Position numbers and translations under genes: made by a program. Under the pieces are notes generated by a model. That model made no database searches. It had not been told where the DNA came from and was given only the letters and a program-made list of their open reading frames with translations. A stretch of 22,383 nt of DNA from a virus (taxonomy: Duplodnaviria; Heunggongvirae; Uroviricota; Caudoviricetes). Every line of letters starts with the position of its first letter. The first letter of the stretch is position 1. Below are positions 1 through 22,383 of this stretch, piece after piece. The stretch lies in IMG/VR virus record IMGVR_UViG_2602041568_000007; one strand, written 5' to 3'.

Positions 1-482
1 TTCGTAATGACCTGGCGGATGCCTTACCGGAAAGTGCAGCCCGTAAGGCACTGAGATTACCGAAGCCTGTTGTGCCGTCTGTCACCCGGGAAAGTGACCT
101 TGTGCCTTCGGTTCCTGCCACCAGCATCATCCAGGATAAGGCGAAAAAGGTGCTGGCGCTGAAAGTGGATCCGGAGTCGCCGGAGTCTTTTATGTTACGC
201 CCAAAACGTCGCCGCTGGGTTAATGAAAAGTACACGCGCTGGGTTAAGACACAGCCGTGTGCATGTTGTGGAAAGCCCGCTGATGATCCCCACCACCTGA
301 TAGGCCACGGTCAGGGGGGAATGGGTACAAAAGCGCATGACCTCTTTGTGTTGCCTTTGTGCAGAAAGCATCACGACGAGCTGCATGCGGATACCGTGGC
401 ATTTGAAGAGAAGTATGGCTCCCAGTTGGAGCTGATATTTCGTTTTATCGATCGTGCGCTGGCAATAGGCGTACTGGCGTAA
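1..482 (+). CDS. DUF968-like prophage protein, C-terminal part (5' end lies outside window)
   Basis: The reading frame is open from the window edge to the stop at 482, so the listed start at 72 is not the real start. Cys/His-rich C-terminus (CACCG...HHLIGHG...PLCRKHHDELH) resembles HNH-like DUF968 proteins found upstream of Q in lambdoid prophages. Family call is from memory. Confidence 0.55.
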   Translation, partial: RNDLADALPESAARKALRLPKPVVPSVTRESDLVPSVPATSIIQDKAKKVLALKVDPESPESFMLRPKRRRWVNEKYTRWVKTQPCACCGKPADDPHHLIGHGQGGMGTKAHDLFVLPLCRKHHDELHADTVAFEEKYGSQLELIFRFIDRALAIGVLA

Positions 483-1854: not shown

Positions 1855-2907
1855 ATGAAAAATACTGTAAAAATAAACAGTGTTGATTTAATCAACGCTG
1901 ATTGCCTGCATTTTATTCAGTCCCTGCCTGATGATTCCATTGACCTGATTGTTACCGATCCGCCTTACTTCAAGGTGAAACCTAACGGTTGGGACAATCA
2001 GTGGAAAGGGGACGAAGATTACCTTAAGTGGCTGGACCACTGTCTGGCCCAGTTCTGGCGGGTGTTGAAACCTGCCGGAAGCCTTTACCTGTTCTGTGGG
2101 CATCGCCTGGCATCTGATATTGAGATCATGATGCGTGAACGTTTCAACGTGCTTAACCATATCATCTGGGCGAAGCCGTCCGGACGTTGGAATGGGTGTA
2201 ATAAAGAAAGTCTGCGCGCATATTTTCCTGCCACAGAGCGCGTTCTGTTTGCTGAACATTACCAGGGGCCATATCGCGGCAAAAGTGACGGCTATGCGGC
2301 AAAAGAAAGGGAACTCAAACAGCACATAATGGCACCGCTGATATCGTATTTCAGGGATGCTCGTGCCGAACTGGGTATAACGGCAAAACAAATTGCCGAA
2401 GCCACAGGTAAGAAAAATATGGTTTCCCACTGGTTTGGTGCCAGTCAGTGGCAGTTGCCGAATGAGGCTGACTATCGGAAGTTACAGGCACTGTTTTCCC
2501 GTATAGCGGCAGAGAAGTTTCAGGAACAACAACTGGAACAACCACACCACCAGCTGGTGGCATCTTATGATTCACTGAATCGCAAATATTCTGAATTGCT
2601 GGATGAGTTTAAATCTCTCCGGCGCTATTTCTCCGTATCAGTCTCCGTGCCTTATACCGATGTCTGGACGCATAAGCCCGTTCAGTTCTACCCGGGTAAA
2701 CATCCGTGCGAGAAACCGACGGATATGCTCCGGCAAATAATCAATGCCAGTAGTCGACCTGGTGATCTGGTTGCTGATTTCTTTATGGGATCCGGTTCCA
2801 CAATAAAAGCAGCAATGGCGCTGGGGCGTCGGGCGTTAGGTGTTGAACTTGAGTCAGAGCGGTTTAATCAGACGGTGAAAGAGGTAAGTGAACTGGTGGG
2901 GAAATAA
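1855..2907 (+). CDS. DNA amino-methyltransferase (N6-adenine or N4-cytosine), phage-encoded orphan MTase
   Basis: Catalytic DPPY motif (LIVTDPPYF) near the N-terminus and AdoMet-binding FxGxG motif (DFFMGSGST) near the C-terminus. This motif order (IV before I) is taken here to indicate a beta-class enzyme. No adjacent restriction endonuclease gene. Confidence 0.8.
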   Translation: MKNTVKINSVDLINADCLHFIQSLPDDSIDLIVTDPPYFKVKPNGWDNQWKGDEDYLKWLDHCLAQFWRVLKPAGSLYLFCGHRLASDIEIMMRERFNVLNHIIWAKPSGRWNGCNKESLRAYFPATERVLFAEHYQGPYRGKSDGYAAKERELKQHIMAPLISYFRDARAELGITAKQIAEATGKKNMVSHWFGASQWQLPNEADYRKLQALFSRIAAEKFQEQQLEQPHHQLVASYDSLNRKYSELLDEFKSLRRYFSVSVSVPYTDVWTHKPVQFYPGKHPCEKPTDMLRQIINASSRPGDLVADFFMGSGSTIKAAMALGRRALGVELESERFNQTVKEVSELVGK

Positions 2908-4724: not shown

Positions 4725-4795
4725 GTCTGAGGGGAGGGGCGGGTCAAATCCCTGCATCCTGACGTCTTCCGGACTGCCCGCCCCATCGTTTTTTT
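4725..4795 (+). other. GC-rich inverted repeat plus T-run between HNH and TerS; candidate cos-site region and/or terminator
   Basis: GGGGCGGG ... CCCGCCCC separated by about 35 nt and followed by TTTTTTT. In HK97-like phages cos lies between the HNH gene and the small terminase gene. Confidence 0.3.
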
Positions 4796-4834
4796 ATACC
4801 CGCGAAAAATGAAATTTAACCAGGAGTGCCGCAT

Positions 4835-5329
4835 ATGGCTGGAACGGCGGGGCGTTCCGGGCGTCGCCCCAAGCCAACGGCGCGCAAGGCGCTGGCCGGA
4901 AACCCCGGCAAGCGAGCCCTGAATAAAGATGAACCTGTTTTTACGCCCATCAAAGGTGTTGAGCCACCGGAGTGGTTCGCTGAAGAAGATCTCCCTCTCG
5001 CCACGATCATGTGGCAACTGACAACTAAAGAACTCTGCGGTCAGGGCCTGCTGTGCGTGACTGACCTCGCGGTGCTTGAGCGGTGGTGCGTGGCCTACGA
5101 GTTCTGGCGACGTGCCGTGAAAAATATTGCCAGACAGGGCAACACCATCACCGGTGCAATGGGCGGTATGGTCAAAAATCCGGAGCTGACCGCCAAAAAA
5201 GAACAGGAGTCCGAGATGAGCAGCACGGGGGCAATGCTCGGACTCGACCCCAGCAGCCGCCAGCGTCTGATTGGCCTGGCGGGGCAGAAGAAAGCCACTA
5301 ACCCGTTTCTGAAAATCATCGAATCATGA
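4835..5329 (+). CDS. Terminase small subunit (P27 family)
   Basis: Start at ATG ([14 protein letters not shown]...) with AGGAG 8 nt upstream; this N-terminal motif is typical of P27-family TerS; stop overlaps TerL start (ATGA). Confidence 0.8.
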
Positions 5330-7059
5330 GCCGGAAATCTTACCCCAACGTAAATGCTGCCAATCAGTATGCCCGTGATGTCGTGCGCGGAAAGATTGTG
5401 GCCTGCCAGTTTGTGATTCAGGCCTGCCAGCGCCATCTTGATGACCTGATGGCGGAAAAAAGTAAGTCGTTTCGTTACCGCTTCGACAAGGACCTGGCTG
5501 AACGGGCCGCGAAATTTATTCAGCTGTTGCCGCACACCAAGGGTGAGTGGGCATTCAAACGGATGCCCATCACGCTGGAGCCGTGGCAGCTATTTGTGAT
5601 CTGCTGTGCGTTTGGCTGGGTCAATAAAGGCACCCGGTTGCGCCGCTTCCGGGAGGTGTATACCGAAATCCCCCGTAAGAACGGCAAATCAGCAATCTCT
5701 GCCGGTGTTGCCCTGTATTGTTTTGCCTGTGATAACGAGTTTGGCGCGGAAGTGTATTCCGGTGCCACGACAGAGAAACAGGCGTGGGAAGTCTTTCGCC
5801 CGGCGCGACTGATGTGTAAACGCACACCCATGCTGACGGAAGCGTTCGGGATTGAGGTTAACGCTTCAAACATGAACCGTCCGGAGGATGGCGCGCGGTT
5901 TGAACCGCTGATCGGTAACCCCGGTGATGGTTCATCACCCCACTGTGCGGTGGTGGATGAATATCACGAGCACGCCACCGATGCGCTTTACACCACGATG
6001 CTTACCGGGATGGGGGCGCGACGTCAGCCACTGATGTGGGCCATCACCACCGCCGGGTACAACATTGAGGGGCCGTGCTACGACAAGCGGCGGGAAGTCA
6101 TCGAGATGCTCAACGGCTCGGTGCCTAACGATGAACTGTTCGGGATCATCTATACCGTTGACGAAGGTGACGACTGGACCGACCCGCAGGTGCTGGAAAA
6201 AGCCAATCCAAATATTGGCGTGTCGGTTTATCGCGAATTTTTGTTAAGTCAGCAGCAGCGTGCGAAAAATAACGCCCGCCTGGCAAACGTCTTTAAAACA
6301 AAACACCTCAATATCTGGGTGTCGGCGCGTTCGGCTTATTTCAATCTGGTGAGCTGGCAGAGCTGCGAGGATAAATCACTGACCCTTGAGCAGTTCGAGG
6401 GGCAACCGTGCATTCTGGCCTTTGACCTGGCGCGTAAGCTGGATATGAACAGCATGGCGCGACTTTATACCCGCGAGATTGACGGTAAAACGCATTACTA
6501 CAGTGTGGCCCCGCGCTTCTGGGTACCGTATGACACGGTGTACAGCGTCGAGAAAAATGAAGATCGCCGGACAGCCGAACGCTTTCAGAAATGGGTGGAA
6601 ATGGGCGTCCTGATCGTTACCGATGGTGCAGAGGTGGATTATCGCTACATCCTCGAAGAGGCCAAAGCGGCGAACAAAATCAGCCCGGTCAGTGAGTCAC
6701 CCATCGACCCTTTCGGGGCGACCGGGCTGTCACATGACCTTGCTGATGAAGACCTGAATCCCGTTACTATCGTCCAGAACTTCGCCAATATGTCCGACCC
6801 GATGAAAGAGCTGGAAGCAGCGATTGAATCGGGGCGCTTTCATCATGACGGCAATCCCATCATGACCTGGTGTATCGGCAATGTGGTCGGCAAAAACATG
6901 CCTGGTAACGATGATTTAGTGAAGCCCGTCAAGGAGCAGGCGGAAAACAAAATCGATGGTGCGGTTGCACTGATTATGACGATCGGTCGGGCAATGCTCA
7001 AAGAACCTGACGATTTCCTCTCATCTCTTGATCCGGACGATGATCTCTTAATTCTATGA
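5326..7059 (+). CDS. Terminase large subunit
   Basis: 577 aa; Walker A-like segment ([10 protein letters not shown]) and acidic Walker B-like segment ([10 protein letters not shown]); placed between TerS and portal. Confidence 0.9.
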
Positions 7060-7217
7060 AATCACTAATTGCTGATGTTATCGGGCTGGCTGGTTTTGGC
7101 CTGCTTACGTGCGGGGTTTACCTGCAGTTTGGTATGGCTCCGGCTCTGATTTTGTCCGGTGCTTTACTGCTGGTGGGCGCACTGGCTATGGCCAGAAGGG
7201 GGACGCGTGCTGCTTGA
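7056..7217 (+). CDS. Small hydrophobic protein (53 aa, two predicted TM segments), hypothetical
   Basis: Hand-translated: [56 protein letters not shown] overlaps the TerL stop (ATGA); the stop overlaps the likely portal start. Below the size cutoff of the ORF track. Confidence 0.3.
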
Positions 7218-8433
7218 TGCTCTGTTCAGAAGTAAATCACTGGAGAATCCTTCCACCCCGATAACCGGTGATGCCGTTGATACTGATGGGCTGTTCCGGG
7301 CAGACGTTTATGTCAGTCCTGAGACTGCGATGAAACTGGCTGCGGTGTATTCCTGTATCTATGTCCTGTCTTCCAGCCTTGCCCAGATGCCGTTGCATGT
7401 TATGCGCAGGCACAAGGGGAAGGTTGAACCCGCACGCGATCATCCGGCGTTTTATCTGGTTCATGATGAGCCCAATACCTGGCAAACCAGCTACAAATGG
7501 CGCGAACTGAAGCAACGTCACATCCTTGGCTGGGGGAATGGGTATACCTGGGTGAAACGTAATCGTCGCGGTGAAGTCATATCCCTGGATTGCTGTATGC
7601 CGTGGGAAACGACGCTGATGAATACTGGTGGCCGATATACCTACGGTTTGTACAACGAATATGGGGCGTTTGCGATCAGTCCGGACGATATGATCCACAT
7701 CCGTGCGCTGGGTAATAATCAGAAGATGGGGCTGAGTCCGATTATGCAACATGCCGAAACAATAGGCATGGGGATGAGCGGTCAGAAGTACACAGAAAGC
7801 TTCTTCAGCGGTAATGCCCGTCCGGCGGGGATAGTATCCGTTAAAAGCGGACTCAATAAGGAAAGCTGGGGCTGGCTTAAAGATCAGTGGCAGAAGGCAT
7901 CGCAGGCGTTACGCCGCCAGGAAAACAAAACCATGCTGCTGCCAGCCGATCTGGATTACAAGGCACTGACTGTGTCGCCAGTTGACGCTCAGATCATTGA
8001 CATGATGAAGCTGAACCGTTCAATGATCGCCGGTATTTTCAATATTCCTGCGCACATGATTAATGACCTCGAAAAAGCCACCTTCTCCAATATTTCTGCG
8101 CAGGCGATTCAGTTTGTCCGCTACACGATGATGCCGTGGGTGACGAACTGGGAGCAGGAGCTTAACCGTCGCTTGTTTACCCGCGCTGAGTTAGCCGCCG
8201 GGTATTACGTCAGGTTCAATCTGACGGGGCTTTTACGCGGAACTCCGCAGGAGCGCGCGCAATTCTATCACTTCGCTATTACCGATGGATGGATGAGCCG
8301 TAATGAGGCCCGCGCATTCGAGGATATGAATCCGGTTGAAGGGCTGGATGAGATGCTGGTAAGCGTGAATGCTGCTAACCCGGCAGGAGATTTTAAGCCC
8401 CCAAAAAATGATGAGGGAAAAACCAATGAATGA
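7207..8433 (+). CDS. Portal protein (HK97 family)
   Basis: Listed ORF 7159..8433; preferred start is GTG at 7207 (VLLDALFRS...) with AAGGGGGA RBS; about 408 aa; position between terminase and prohead protease. Confidence 0.85.
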   Translation: MLLDALFRSKSLENPSTPITGDAVDTDGLFRADVYVSPETAMKLAAVYSCIYVLSSSLAQMPLHVMRRHKGKVEPARDHPAFYLVHDEPNTWQTSYKWRELKQRHILGWGNGYTWVKRNRRGEVISLDCCMPWETTLMNTGGRYTYGLYNEYGAFAISPDDMIHIRALGNNQKMGLSPIMQHAETIGMGMSGQKYTESFFSGNARPAGIVSVKSGLNKESWGWLKDQWQKASQALRRQENKTMLLPADLDYKALTVSPVDAQIIDMMKLNRSMIAGIFNIPAHMINDLEKATFSNISAQAIQFVRYTMMPWVTNWEQELNRRLFTRAELAAGYYVRFNLTGLLRGTPQERAQFYHFAITDGWMSRNEARAFEDMNPVEGLDEMLVSVNAANPAGDFKPPKNDEGKTNE

Positions 8434-17858: not shown

Positions 17859-18934
17859 ACGACAATGTCACGCTACGGGTAAATGGCCGGGAGTGGAATG
17901 GCTGGACATCGGTGCGCATCGGTGCCGGTATTGAACGGCTGGCGCGGGATTTCAGTGTGGAGATCACCCGCCAGTGGCCGGGAGATGAGGGTATTACCAC
18001 GCTTCAGCCGCGCATTAAAAACGGTTCAAAAGTGGAGGTGCTGATTGGTGATGAGCTGGTGATCACCGGCTGGGTGGAGGCGACGCCCGTTCGTTACGAT
18101 GCCCGTTCGGTCAGCACCGGTATTGCCGGACGCAGTCTGACCGCTGACCTGATTGACTGTGCAGCCGAACCTACACAGTTTAACGGACGATCGCTGGTAC
18201 AGATTGCGCAGGCGCTTGCTGCGCCTTTCGGCATTGAGGTGGTGAACAACGGTGCGCCGTCGGGTGTTATTCCTGACGTCCAGCCTGATCACGGCGAAAC
18301 GGTGATTGAGGTGATCAACAAAATACTCGGTCAGCAGCAGGCACTGGCTTACGACGACCCGCACGGCAGGCTGGTGATTAGCGGTATTAGCTCAACGCGG
18401 GCACATACTGCGCTGGTACTCGGGGAAAACATCCTTTCCTGCGATACGGAGAAGAGTATCCGGGAGCGGTTTTCTGTTTACCAGGTGGCGGGGCAGCGTG
18501 CCGGAAACGACGATGATTTCGGTGAGGCCACCACCACCGCGCTGCGGGCCCGCACAGAGGACGCATTTATTGCCCGTTACCGTCCGATGTATATCAGGCA
18601 GACAGGGCAGGCCACGGGGGCAGGCTGTATTGCGCGTGCTGACTTTGAAGCCCGACAACGGGCGGCGCGGACGGATGAAACCACCTATGTGGTGCAGGGC
18701 TGGCGACAGGGTAACGGTACGCTGTGGCAGCCCAACCAGCGGGTGATTGTCTTCGATCCGGTCTGTGGTTTCGACAATACCGAACTGCTTGTCTCGGAAG
18801 TCACGTTTACTCAGGACCAGAACGGCACCCTGACGGAAATCCGTGTCGGCCCACCTGATGCTTATCTGCCTGAACCCGAAGCCCCCGGCGCGCGGAAAAA
18901 GAAAAAAGCCAGAGTACAGGAGGACCCGTTCTGA
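17855..18934 (+). CDS. Baseplate hub / tail protein (Mu gpP-like)
   Basis: 359 aa; ATGA coupling to gpN; gene order matches Mu N-P-V-gp46-J. Confidence 0.75.
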   Translation: MNDNVTLRVNGREWNGWTSVRIGAGIERLARDFSVEITRQWPGDEGITTLQPRIKNGSKVEVLIGDELVITGWVEATPVRYDARSVSTGIAGRSLTADLIDCAAEPTQFNGRSLVQIAQALAAPFGIEVVNNGAPSGVIPDVQPDHGETVIEVINKILGQQQALAYDDPHGRLVISGISSTRAHTALVLGENILSCDTEKSIRERFSVYQVAGQRAGNDDDFGEATTTALRARTEDAFIARYRPMYIRQTGQATGAGCIARADFEARQRAARTDETTYVVQGWRQGNGTLWQPNQRVIVFDPVCGFDNTELLVSEVTFTQDQNGTLTEIRVGPPDAYLPEPEAPGARKKKKARVQEDPF

Positions 18935-19482
18935 TGAGGACGATTGAAGCCATGCAGCGACAACTCCTCGGCCTGATTGGGCGGGCAGTGGTGAAAAGCA
19001 TCAGTGCCGCCACGAAATGTCAGACCGTGGATGTGTCCCTGATTGCCGGTGAACCCAAAGCCGGGGTTGAACATCTTGAACCCTACGGTTTTACCGCAAG
19101 GGCAAACAGCGGTGCGGAAGCGGTGGTGTTGTTTCCGGATGGCGACCGTTCTCATGCGGTGGTTGTTACGGTGTCGGACCGGCGCTACCGCCTGAAAGGG
19201 CTGCAGACGGGTGAGGTGGCTGTCTATGACGATCAGGGGCAGTCCGTGACGCTGACCCGGGAGGGGATCGTGGTGGACGGTGCTGGTAAAACGATCACGT
19301 TTCGCAATTCACCTAAAGCACGTTTTGAAATGGACCTGGAAGTGACAGGACAGGTGAAAGACCTGTGCGACTCCGGCGGCACCACCATGTCAGCGATGCG
19401 GCTTGCCTATAACGGGCATCGTCACAGAGAGAACGGTCAGGGCAGTAACACCGACAAACCTGATAAAGCGATGGAGGCATGA
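18934..19482 (+). CDS. Baseplate assembly protein V (spike, Mu gp45-like)
   Basis: 182 aa; gene order; size consistent with gpV-type spike proteins. Confidence 0.7.
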   Translation: MRTIEAMQRQLLGLIGRAVVKSISAATKCQTVDVSLIAGEPKAGVEHLEPYGFTARANSGAEAVVLFPDGDRSHAVVVTVSDRRYRLKGLQTGEVAVYDDQGQSVTLTREGIVVDGAGKTITFRNSPKARFEMDLEVTGQVKDLCDSGGTTMSAMRLAYNGHRHRENGQGSNTDKPDKAMEA

Positions 19483-19907
19483 TGGAACTGTGGCTGACGG
19501 TGAACGGTAAACGCACCTGCGCCAGCGCACCGCTGGATCCGCTGACCCGCGCCGTGGTGATTTCCCTGTTTACCTGGCGGCGGGCGGAGCCTGATGACAA
19601 TGCCGACGTCCCGATGGGATGGTGGGGGGATACCTGGCCTGCGGTACAGAATGACCGTTACGGCTCCCGACTGTGGCTGCTTCAGCGCAGCAAACTGACC
19701 AATCAGCTGGTGCAGACGGTAAGGGGGTATATCCGCGAATGCCTGCAATGGATGATTGATGACGGCGTGGTGTCCCGTATTGATCTGGATATCCGCCGCA
19801 CCGGGATTAATGAACTGGGTAACAGTATCACTCTCTGGCGTCGTGACGGACCGGTAATGATTTCTTTTGATGATCTGTGGAGTGCGATAACGCATGGCGG
19901 ACAGTGA
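19479..19907 (+). CDS. Mu gp46-like baseplate protein
   Basis: 142 aa; ATGA overlap with the V gene; position before the J-like gene. Confidence 0.7.
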   Translation: MMELWLTVNGKRTCASAPLDPLTRAVVISLFTWRRAEPDDNADVPMGWWGDTWPAVQNDRYGSRLWLLQRSKLTNQLVQTVRGYIRECLQWMIDDGVVSRIDLDIRRTGINELGNSITLWRRDGPVMISFDDLWSAITHGGQ

Positions 19908-20952
19908 ATTTCAGCGCCCGACGCTGGCAGAAAATATCAGTATGCTCCGTAACGATTTATTCGCCAGGCTGGACGTCAGCGACACGCTCCGGCGCATGGA
20001 TGAAGACGTGCGGGCAAAGGTGTATGCGGCGGCGCTGCATACGGTTTACGGTTACATCGATTATCTGGCAATGAACATGCTGCCTGACCTGTGCGATGAG
20101 TCCTGGCTGGCGCGACATGCTGCGATGAAACGGTGTCCGCGCAAGGGGGCCACGGCTGCCAGCGGGTATATGCGCTGGGAAGGTGTCAGCGATGGCCTGA
20201 AGGTGACCGCCGGGAGTGTTATTCAGCGCGATGACCTGGTTCAGTACACGGCAACTGCCGATGCAACCAGCTCCGGTGGTGTCCTGCGCGTGCCGATCGC
20301 CTGCTCAAGTGCAGGTGCGGTCGGTAACGCTGACGACGGTACGGCATTAATCCTGGTCACGCCGGTGAATGGTCTGCCGTCTTCCGGTGTGGCTGACACC
20401 CTGACTGGCGGATTTGATACTGAAGAGCTGGAAACGTGGCGCGCCCGCGTCATTGAGCGGTATTACTGGACGCCGCAGGGCGGGGCTGACGGGGACTATG
20501 TCGTCTGGGCTAAAGAAGTGCCCGGCATTACCCGCGCATGGACATACCGTCACTGGATGGGAACGGGAACTGTCGGTGTGATGATTGCCAGCAGTGACCT
20601 GATTAATCCCATTCCGGAAGAATCAACGGAAACGGCAGCAAGACAACATATCGTGCCACTGGCCCCGGTGGCAGGCTCTGATTTGTATGTATTCAGGCCG
20701 GTGGCACATACGGTGGATTTTCATATCCGCGTGACGCCGGACACACCAGAAATACGGGCTGCCATTACCGCAGAGTTGCGTTCATTCCTGCTGCGTGATG
20801 GTTATCCGCAGGGAGAGCTGAAGGTATCGCGTATCAGTGAAGCGATTTCCGGTGCGAACGGGGAATACAGCCATCAGTTGCTTGCTCCGGCGGACAATAT
20901 CTCCATTGCAAAAAATGAACTGGCGGTTCTGGGGACGATTTCATGGACGTGA
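19894..20952 (+). CDS. Baseplate J-like protein (Mu gp47-like)
   Basis: 352 aa; gene order and size typical of baseplate J family. Confidence 0.8.
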
Positions 20953-21527
20953 CAAACGATGATTACATCCGTCTGTTGTCGGCACTGCTGCCGCCCGGTC
21001 CGGCGTGGTCAGCCAGCGATCCGGCGATTGCCGGTGCGGCACCGTCATTAACCCGTGTTCATCAGCGTGCGGATGCCCTGATGCGGGAGCTGGATCCGCG
21101 CACCACCACCGAACTGATAAATCGCTGGGAGCGTCTGTGCGGCCTGCCGGATGAATGTATTCCCGCAGGGACACAGACCCTTCGCCAGCGTCAGCAACGG
21201 CTGGATGCGAAGGTTAACCTGGCGGGTGGCATCAACGAGGATTTTTATCTTGCACAGCTTGCTGCTCTGGGCAGACCAGACGCCACCATCACGCGATACG
21301 ATAAAAGCACTTTCACCTGCTCATCGGCCTGTACTGACGCGGTGAATGCGCCGGAATGGCGGTATTACTGGCAGGTCAACATGCCAGCCGCCGCCAACAC
21401 CACCTGGATGACATGTGGCGATCCCTGTGATTCCGCACTGCGTATCTGGGGTGACACCGTTGTCGAGTGTGTGCTTAACAAACTCTGCCCGTCGCATACC
21501 TACGTAATTTTTAAATATCCGGAGTAA
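20943..21527 (+). CDS. Tail protein, DUF2313 / Mu gp48-like (YmfQ-like)
   Basis: 194 aa; N-terminus ([18 protein letters not shown]) resembles DUF2313 proteins as recalled; directly precedes the tail fiber gene. Confidence 0.75.
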
Positions 21528-21530
21528 TCC

Positions 21531-21824
21531 ATGCATCGTATAGACACGAAAACCGCGCAGAAGGATAAGTTCGGCGCGGGTAAGAACGGTTTTACCCGTG
21601 GTAACCCCCAGACCGGCACGCCTGCCACCGATCTGGATGATGACTACTTTGACATGTTGCAGGAGGAGCTTTGCAGCGTTGTGGAGGCGTCCGGTGCCAG
21701 CCTGGAGAAGGGGCGAAACGACCAGTTGCTTACCGCGCTTCGTGCTCTGCTGTTAAGCCGCAAGAATCCGTTTGGCGATATCAAATCGGATGGCACGGTG
21801 AAAACGGCTCTCGAAAACCTTGGT
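21531..21824 (+). CDS. Tail fiber protein, conserved N-terminal domain (interrupted by assembly gap)
   Basis: 98 aa before the N run ([47 protein letters not shown]...), recalled as the conserved N-terminus of enterobacterial prophage side tail fibers. Confidence 0.7.
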
Positions 21825-21898
21825 NNNNNNNNNNNNNNNNNNNNNNNNNNNNNNNNNNNNNNNNNNNNNNNNNNNNNNNNNNNNNNNNNNNNNNNNNN
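21825..21898. other. Assembly gap (74 N)
   Basis: Run of N characters read directly from the sequence; its length is probably arbitrary, since the flanking tail-fiber segments are in different frames. Confidence 1.
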
Positions 21899-22188
21899 AT
21901 GACGGGCGCGGAGTGGACAGTAGCCGGACGTTGTTGTCGTGGCAAAAAGGCTCTTATCTGGTTCAGGAAGCCAATATATCACCCGACAGCGTGGTGCAGT
22001 TTTCGGTAAACGACATTGGCCTGCTGGGATGGGATAAAACTGAAACCAATTCAGATATTCTCAGAGCGAAAAGTATACCTACAGGACATATCTGGAACCC
22101 CGTTCCAGTGGGAGCCTGGGGGATTCAGTATCTGGGTTATGCAAGGCCACGTAACATTGCATTTAACTACATCGTAAGGGCTGCATGA
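21899..22188 (+). CDS. Tail fiber protein, C-terminal (distal) fragment after gap
   Basis: Open frame from the gap edge to the stop at 22186-22188 (about 95 aa); stop overlaps the start of a tail-fiber-assembly-like gene. Confidence 0.55.
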
Positions 22189-22383
22189 TGAGCAAGAAAA
22201 CCATGACTACAGCGGTGCTGAATGAATCGCGGCTGGCAACAGTTGCAGGAGAGGTTGTTGTCCACAGCTACGATAATAAGACGCGGGAATACCTTTGCAC
22301 GTCAACCGAATATCTGGCTGTGGGCGTTGGCCTTCCTGCACATTCATGCACTGATGCCCCCGGGGAAAGGCGGGCTGGTTATG
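22185..22383 (+). CDS. Tail fiber assembly protein (Tfa/Mu U-like), 3' end outside window
   Basis: Hand-translated MMSKKTMTTAVLNESRLATVAGEVVVHSYDNKTREYLCTSTEYLAVGVGLPAHSCTDAPGE; matches the conserved Tfa N-terminal pattern (Y-D..T.EY.....LP..STD.AP). Runs off the window end, so absent from the ORF track. Confidence 0.7.
   Translation, partial: MMSKKTMTTAVLNESRLATVAGEVVVHSYDNKTREYLCTSTEYLAVGVGLPAHSCTDAPGERRAGY

Follow-up and report, generated by a model that had tools for sequence, protein, structure and literature searches.

The tail fiber locus and its prophage context

The stretch of DNA analyzed in this study (hereafter the window; 22,383 nucleotides) is the complete contig AURV01000020.1 of NCBI assembly GCA_000467205.1 (22383 bp), and an independent copy was identical to it, including the Ns. 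Given that the NCBI record AURV01000020.1 itself has the same Ns, they are part of the deposited scaffold, and the possibility that they were a mask added by tools was rejected. Position 22383 is the true end of the contig. A literature search by accession found no publication on AURV01 or GCA_000467205.

The contig contains the late region of an SfV-like prophage. Genes for a Q antiterminator, a DNA methylase, a holin, an HNH endonuclease and the terminase are followed by HK97-type head genes and then by Mu-type sheath, tube and baseplate genes, including those of baseplate J and Mu gp48/YmfQ. Pfam matches on the contig were found for the Q antiterminator, holin, HNH, Baseplate_J and Mu Gp48. 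Both the synteny of the late region and its identity place the contig with the SfV-like lambdoid prophages, as it is 97.5% identical to SfV over positions 4768–21824. The tape-measure and DNA-circularization proteins have identical NCBI entries labeled Shigella sonnei or E. coli. The start of the contig falls inside a DUF968/HNHc-like gene (window 72–482), whose profile match runs from position 38 of 171. In addition, an N6/N4 DNA methylase gene (window 1855–2907) is located between the Q antiterminator and holin genes.

The features at the fiber end of the window are as follows.

20943–21527, + strand: YmfQ/Mu gp48-like baseplate gene (Pfam Phage_Mu_Gp48, E = 8e-27; YmfQ in relatives), directly 5' of the fiber gene
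21531–21824, + strand: constant N-terminal part of the fiber, exactly 98 codons from the ATG at 21531 (translation MHRID...TALENLG)
21808–21824, + strand: 17 visible of the 26 bp of a pix-type crossover site, CTCTCGAAAACC-TT-GGT, matching the left site of e14
21825–21898, no strand: scaffold gap of 74 N, the sole N run in the window
21899–22188, + strand: distal, receptor-end part of the fiber, in the frame of 21901, with 95 codons and a stop at 22186–22188
22188–22383, + strand: first 65 codons of tfa (tail fiber assembly), cut by the contig end

The distal fiber fragment, whose translation is DGRGVDSS...NYIVRAA, is the only long open frame after the gap, and the contig ends 485 nt after the gap. 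An exact 40-mer from this fragment had no match in the viral, genome or metagenome contig collections. The tfa fragment matched the start of the Tfa of L013, one of the Logan contigs described below, with 100% identity. This Tfa is 205 residues long, is encoded at 17746–18363 of L013 and has Pfam Caudo_TAP at residues 83–204.

The constant part of the fiber was 100% identical to that of locus L001, which is found in a complete E. coli genome, and 96–97% identical to those of 11 other loci. Altogether, 1927 E. coli records matched, and among the matches listed all but six stopped at query position 882, which is window position 21824. Similarly, homology to SfV, SfII, SfIV, SfI and the other best-matching phages listed ended at 21824. 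The preliminary description of this DNA had placed the N run directly after a conserved fiber N-terminus of 98 residues, and this placement was confirmed, as positions 21531–21824 are 98 codons and nearly all of the listed matches end at 21824.

Length of the gap and integrity of the fiber gene

Read literally, the fiber gene is 294 + 74 + 290 = 658 nt long, which is not a multiple of 3, and its distal part is out of the frame that starts at 21531. The frame discontinuity reported in the preliminary description is therefore present in the deposited letters. Relatives that match both sides of the gap, however, restore the frame. These included two complete E. coli genomes, H1 (locus L001; 99.1% identical) and H2 (locus L002; 97.6%), and the two Logan contigs L013 and L015. 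To the left of the gap, L013 and L015 were 99.6% identical to the window over 17 kb, and the identities of L001 and L002 were ~97.6–97.9%. The 485-nt piece to the right of the gap was 99.4–100% identical in L001, L002, L013 and L015, with 2 mismatches in L013 and L015. The distal part of the fiber was 99.3–99.7% identical to those of all four, in which it is in frame with the N-terminus. In place of the 74 N of the window these relatives have 181 nt, as revealed by alignment with L001 and L002 and by BLAST coordinates in L013 and L015.

With 181 nt in the gap, 294 + 181 + 290 = 765 nt form a single open reading frame of 254 amino acid residues. In the relatives, this stretch encodes residues 99–158 of the fiber and covers both the right half-site of the crossover (LGEG) and the Collar domain. 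Pfam Collar (PF07484) was identified at residues 108–155 of the 254-aa homolog of L013 (E = 3.9e-14; 52.8 bits, with a cut-off of 24). Neither of the two visible fiber fragments matched any Pfam family, and the Collar region sits under the Ns. Given that the 181 nt yield an uninterrupted frame, both the frame break and the apparent shortness of the fiber are artifacts of an arbitrary gap size. The fiber that had been called implausibly short would be 254 residues long, and this length is normal in the family: fibers built on this constant part measured 209–262 residues in 28 of the 29 relatives with a left crossover site. Judged from these relatives, the fiber gene here reads as one contiguous 254-aa frame with a constant part of 98 residues, a collar module and a strain-specific tip, and the frame break would have no biological meaning.

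Two other readings of the gap bear on this length. If the 74 N were taken literally, the fiber gene would be a frameshifted or deleted pseudogene. This reading agrees with the two parts being out of frame as written and with the NCBI annotation of the homologous gene in H1 and H2 as incomplete. An N run, however, carries no sequence information, and the gene of H1 is open at 254 residues. Moreover, a deletion of 107 nt that removes the collar is unlikely with both flanks 99.6–100% identical to L001. We regard the literal reading as hardly credible. Alternatively, the gap might hide an insertion sequence or a variable region of a different length. Consistent with this, the identical proteins mentioned above are labeled Shigella sonnei, and IS elements are frequent in Shigella; IS elements are also present in this region of L031, L032 and L035, and the 74 N differ from the expected 181 nt. 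In four relatives, however, both flanks run seamlessly into the 181-nt stretch, with the right flank 99.4–100% identical, and the scaffolder's 74 nt implies a short read-pair span and not an IS of 0.8–1.3 kb. A hidden insert is thus highly improbable.

RefSeq labels the homologous fiber gene of L001/H1 and L002/H2 (8589–9110 in both) as an incomplete pseudogene "missing C-terminus." The same fiber sequence of H1 reads as an open frame of 254 residues, and the label presumably comes from comparison with longer fiber models. Such a label could mislead, as short fibers of this kind may seem broken. For annotation, the fiber gene of the window is not to be labeled as a pseudogene, whether frameshifted or truncated, and the length of the gap is not to be taken from the 74 N.

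Crossover site and invertible segment in the relatives

The constant part of the fiber ends in a crossover site. Its left half-site is CTCTCGAAAACC, the central TT is at positions 21820–21821 and GGT opens the right half, of which the last 9 nt are under the Ns. The N run thus starts 3 nt past the central TT. The 17 visible nucleotides were identical to the left site of the P segment of e14 (L022, K-12) and to the left sites of 28 relatives. In the relatives, the full site is CTCTCGAAAACCTTGGT(C/T)TGGGAGAA, which contains the published inverted repeat of e14, TTGGTTTGGGAGAAGG (PMC12529663). As far as the 17 visible nucleotides extend, an imperfectly dyad-symmetric 26-bp site is found at the junction between the constant and variable parts. 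The preliminary description, which had anticipated a crossover site at this junction, was borne out by the identity of positions 21808–21824 to the left site of e14.

The 29 loci that carry the left site were scanned for the remaining parts of the system. An inverted second site, 1.2–1.95 kb downstream, and an adjoining pin homolog were found in 15 of them. The right site is TTCTCCCAAACCAACGTTTATGAAAA or a near variant and is located directly before the pin homolog. Among the closest relatives, L013 and L002 have the second site, L001 lacks it, and the L015 contig ends before the position of the site. Between the two sites, the relatives contain the expressed fiber end with its tfa, opposed by a second pair consisting of a tfa and a gp53-like fiber end. 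A simulated exchange at the central dinucleotides of L013 resulted in an in-frame gp53-like fiber of 252 residues, with the alternative tfa immediately after it. Among the relatives, both states are found in nature: 10 loci, including L006 and L030, express the collar cassette (with a module at least ~93% identical), whereas L010 and L032 have it in the inverted, silent state. The collar module of L031 is more divergent (76%). Moreover, the gp53-like cassette is joined to the constant part in 3–5 complete E. coli genomes, with other partner cassettes. No flipped twin of the window's own cassette pair was identified among complete E. coli genomes; a flipped junction would read from the constant part into GGTTTGGGAGAAACGATAAAT..., and reads of the inverted state would match CTCTCGAAAACCTTGGTTTGGGAGAAACGAT....

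The pin gene is full length, with Resolvase and HTH_7 domains, in 9 of the 15 loci with a second site. In L002, L008, L013 and L027, which form a dusA-integrated lineage, pin is frameshifted such that its catalytic domain is split from the HTH. The frameshifted genes are at 19290–19860 of L013 and 10897–11470 of L002, in which the catalytic domain (residues ~1–125) is followed by a stop and by the HTH in another frame. In L002, the start codon position of pin has ATA in place of ATG. The pin genes of L029 and L033 are also damaged, by disruption or truncation. When the truncated 142-aa invertase served as a homology query, only cluster representatives of the large Pin/Fin family were found. 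The prophages of the dusA lineage resemble switches that are frozen in one state, unless a Pin from elsewhere acts on them in trans. Two previous results are relevant in this regard: PinE, PinQ and PinR each invert the e14 segment in trans (PMC12529663), and both e14 orientations coexist in clonal K-12 cultures, as found by whole-genome sequencing (PMC4272514). From these two results, switching would still be compatible with a defective pin next to the segment.

Different from the loci with a second site, L001, which is the closest to the window in the fiber itself, lacks the second crossover site and has two tfa genes arranged in tandem and both in one orientation, and what is left of its invertase is a 41-aa C-terminal HTH remnant (11403–11528), annotated as a partial helix-turn-helix protein. 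This arrangement points to a deletion or rearrangement that took the right half of a former invertible segment. The gene slot beyond the invertase also varied. It contains McrA/HNH in e14 (L022) and L006, a DUF4145 protein in the dusA lineage (L002, L008, L013 and L027) and a LEM-3-like GIY-YIG nuclease in L025, L028, L029 and L036, beyond which L025 has the reverse transcriptase of retron Ec67. From its contents, the slot downstream of pin looks like a variable slot for defense genes at the end of the prophage. Finally, L014, which has an identical tape-measure protein, encodes at 16982–18028 a fiber of 348 residues that matches no Pfam family. The junction has a degenerate site (CTCTCGAAAACCTTCAATTGCGAGAA), neither a second site nor an invertase is present, and an acyltransferase gene comes next. 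In L014, the junction was evidently used to acquire a non-invertible fiber end.

In the window itself, which ends 485 nt past the gap, tblastn with PinE found no invertase, and neither a second crossover site nor an alternative fiber cassette was found. On present sequence evidence, the invertase-driven fiber switch that the preliminary description proposed is correct for the family of relatives, in which 15 of the 29 loci have the second inverted site, an inverted alternative fiber end, the second tfa and pin, as in e14-type elements. The fiber gene at 21531 would accordingly be the entry point of an e14-type P-invertible segment, which is observed in the relatives and predicted for this genome. 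The P-invertible segment of e14 is a subject of Plasterk and van de Putte (1985) and Mehta et al. (2004).

Cause of the assembly break and comparison with known systems

Three break points need to be explained: 21824/21825, 21898/21899 and the contig end at 22383. The 181-nt module hidden by the gap occurs in 2282 of 5426 complete E. coli genomes, with up to 7 places per genome and 3 in the closest genome. The collar module is 92–94% identical in the collar fibers of e14, L006, L008 and L010, whose tips are unrelated. Past the module, similarity drops to background (43–65% over the next 60 nt), and the distal tip of the window is likewise unrelated to the tips of other collar-type fibers. Given that the collar module is conserved and the tips downstream of it are not related, the right edge of the gap is a module boundary. 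At its other end, the collar module is bounded by the crossover site, which is the left edge of the gap. The contig ends at tfa nucleotide 196, near nucleotides 187/226 at which many E. coli tfa genes begin to match (80–88% identity). The contig thus appears to end where a tip-specific Tfa N-terminus gives way to the conserved Caudo_TAP part, which is also a mosaic boundary. A unique 485-nt piece flanked by multi-copy modules would account for all three breaks.

The sequence of events may have been as follows. Short reads would have been unable to place the multi-copy modules, which are the 181-nt collar module and the 3' part of tfa. The assembler would have retained the unique 485-nt tip piece, which read pairs joined to the main contig, and placed Ns in between. 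The N run would then be a scaffolding gap of arbitrary length inside an intact fiber gene of a draft assembly, with a true length of ~181 nt. For this genome itself, a second collar module is predicted. A long inverted repeat that flanks the segment was absent from L001, L002 and L013, in which only the crossover sites of ~19–26 nt are inverted, and the collapse of such a repeat as the source of the missing 181 nt was rejected because the sites are of ~19–26 nt only.

Three observations speak against the collapse of repeats. First, collar modules of different prophages are ~92–96% identical and need not collapse in every assembler. Second, the gap estimate of 74 falls 107 nt short of the expected 181. 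Third, the left contig stops at the first base (C vs. T) at which L002-like orientations differ, which fits heterogeneity of inversion as well. Repeat collapse is nevertheless a fairly probable cause of the break.

The third observation leads to the alternative that the segment was present in both orientations in the sequenced culture, inverted by a Pin-type invertase acting in cis or in trans, so that the assembly graph forked at the site and the Ns bridge the fork. The start of the N run, 3 nt past the central TT of the site, agrees with this. Should the site be of the C type found in L001 and L002, the N run would begin exactly at the first orientation-specific base, and the constant part of the window is 100% identical to that of L001, a carrier of this type. 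The Logan contig L017 (SRR33871040), which represents a 99.7% identical prophage, ends at 17284, the last base of the site (...CCTTGGTTTGGGAGAA). Given that this independent short-read assembly stops there too, the junction is a recurrent break point of assemblies, and the end of L017 is compatible with a mixture; a second fiber gene that shares the constant part, however, would give the same pattern. The coexistence of both e14 orientations in clonal K-12 (PMC4272514) and the inversion of the e14 segment in trans by PinE, PinQ and PinR (PMC12529663) also favor a mixed culture. However, inversion is expected to break an assembly only at the two 26-bp sites and so explains the left break only, leaving the missing 181 nt inside the segment and the end of the contig in tfa, at 485 nt, unexplained. 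In addition, pin is frameshifted in the closest full-length relatives (L013, L002, L008 and L027), L001, which is identical in the constant part, has no second site and a pin reduced to the 41-aa remnant, and both the invertase and the second site are absent from the window, which ends 485 nt past the gap. A mixed culture as the origin of the gap is therefore unlikely. The stronger proposition, that this strain has a live e14-type switch with mixed orientations and a Pin supplied in trans by another prophage, despite an adjacent invertase frameshifted as in the closest lineage, such that the break marks heterogeneity, is quite unlikely. If it were true, the switch might, in a Shigella or E. 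coli host, also behave like PinQ/StfE2, for which a block of phage adsorption that is activated by inversion was recently described.

The preliminary description had named heterogeneity from inversion or repeats in the fiber shaft as common causes of a break at this spot. Repeated fiber modules fit all three breaks, and inversion heterogeneity fits the left one only. Overall, we consider it probable that the N run is an arbitrary scaffold gap in an intact 254-aa fiber gene, that this gene is an e14-type entry point and that the assembly broke at multi-copy modules. The finding is a draft-assembly artifact at a known recombination hot spot. It shows no departure from described systems and is not novel. 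Its practical value is for annotation. It also shows that contig breaks in prophage fiber regions coincide with module boundaries, here the crossover site, the far edge of the collar module and the point at which tfa becomes conserved, and such breaks can mark invertible or mosaic fiber cassettes in draft genomes.

Similar to the P segment of e14 (ymfQ – stfE/stfP – tfaE/tfaP – pinE), the window has ymfQ followed by the constant part of the fiber. The constant part is 96% identical to that of e14 and the collar module, as represented by the relatives, is 93% identical. The visible part of the left site is identical to that of e14, and in the relatives of the window so is the right site. In these relatives, the segment is 1.8–1.95 kb long and pin is directly downstream. 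Different from e14, the fiber tip and the Tfa N-terminus are unrelated or only ~78% similar, and the module is part of a complete late region of an SfV-like prophage, whereas e14 is a decayed element. By synteny, the identity of the constant part (96%) and the visible crossover site, the region is assigned to the e14-type P-inversion family.

SfV, SfII, SfIV and SfI share ~97% nucleotide identity with the window over the head, tail and baseplate genes up to 21824, and for the phages of the SfV group this homology ends at the crossover site. The SfV-like gtr loci (L003, L005, L007 and L009) have a fixed gp53-like fiber, a tfa and an inverted tfa remnant, with neither a second site nor an invertase.

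Descriptions of the Pin-driven fiber switch of e14, Mu and P1 date back to the 1980s. In the Gin/G system of Mu and the Cin/C system of P1, the constant 5' part of the fiber gene is outside the segment and the crossover site is at the junction between the constant and variable parts. Two opposed cassettes, each with a fiber end and a chaperone, alternate in the S/U and S'/U' switching of Mu and P1, and a Din-family serine invertase is encoded next to them. Different from Mu and P1, the fibers here are much shorter (209–262 residues), and different from P1, which has 0.6-kb repeats, the flanking repeats in the relatives are the ~26-bp sites only. The architecture found in the relatives of the window follows the same logic as that of the G segment of Mu and the C segment of P1, a likeness of design.
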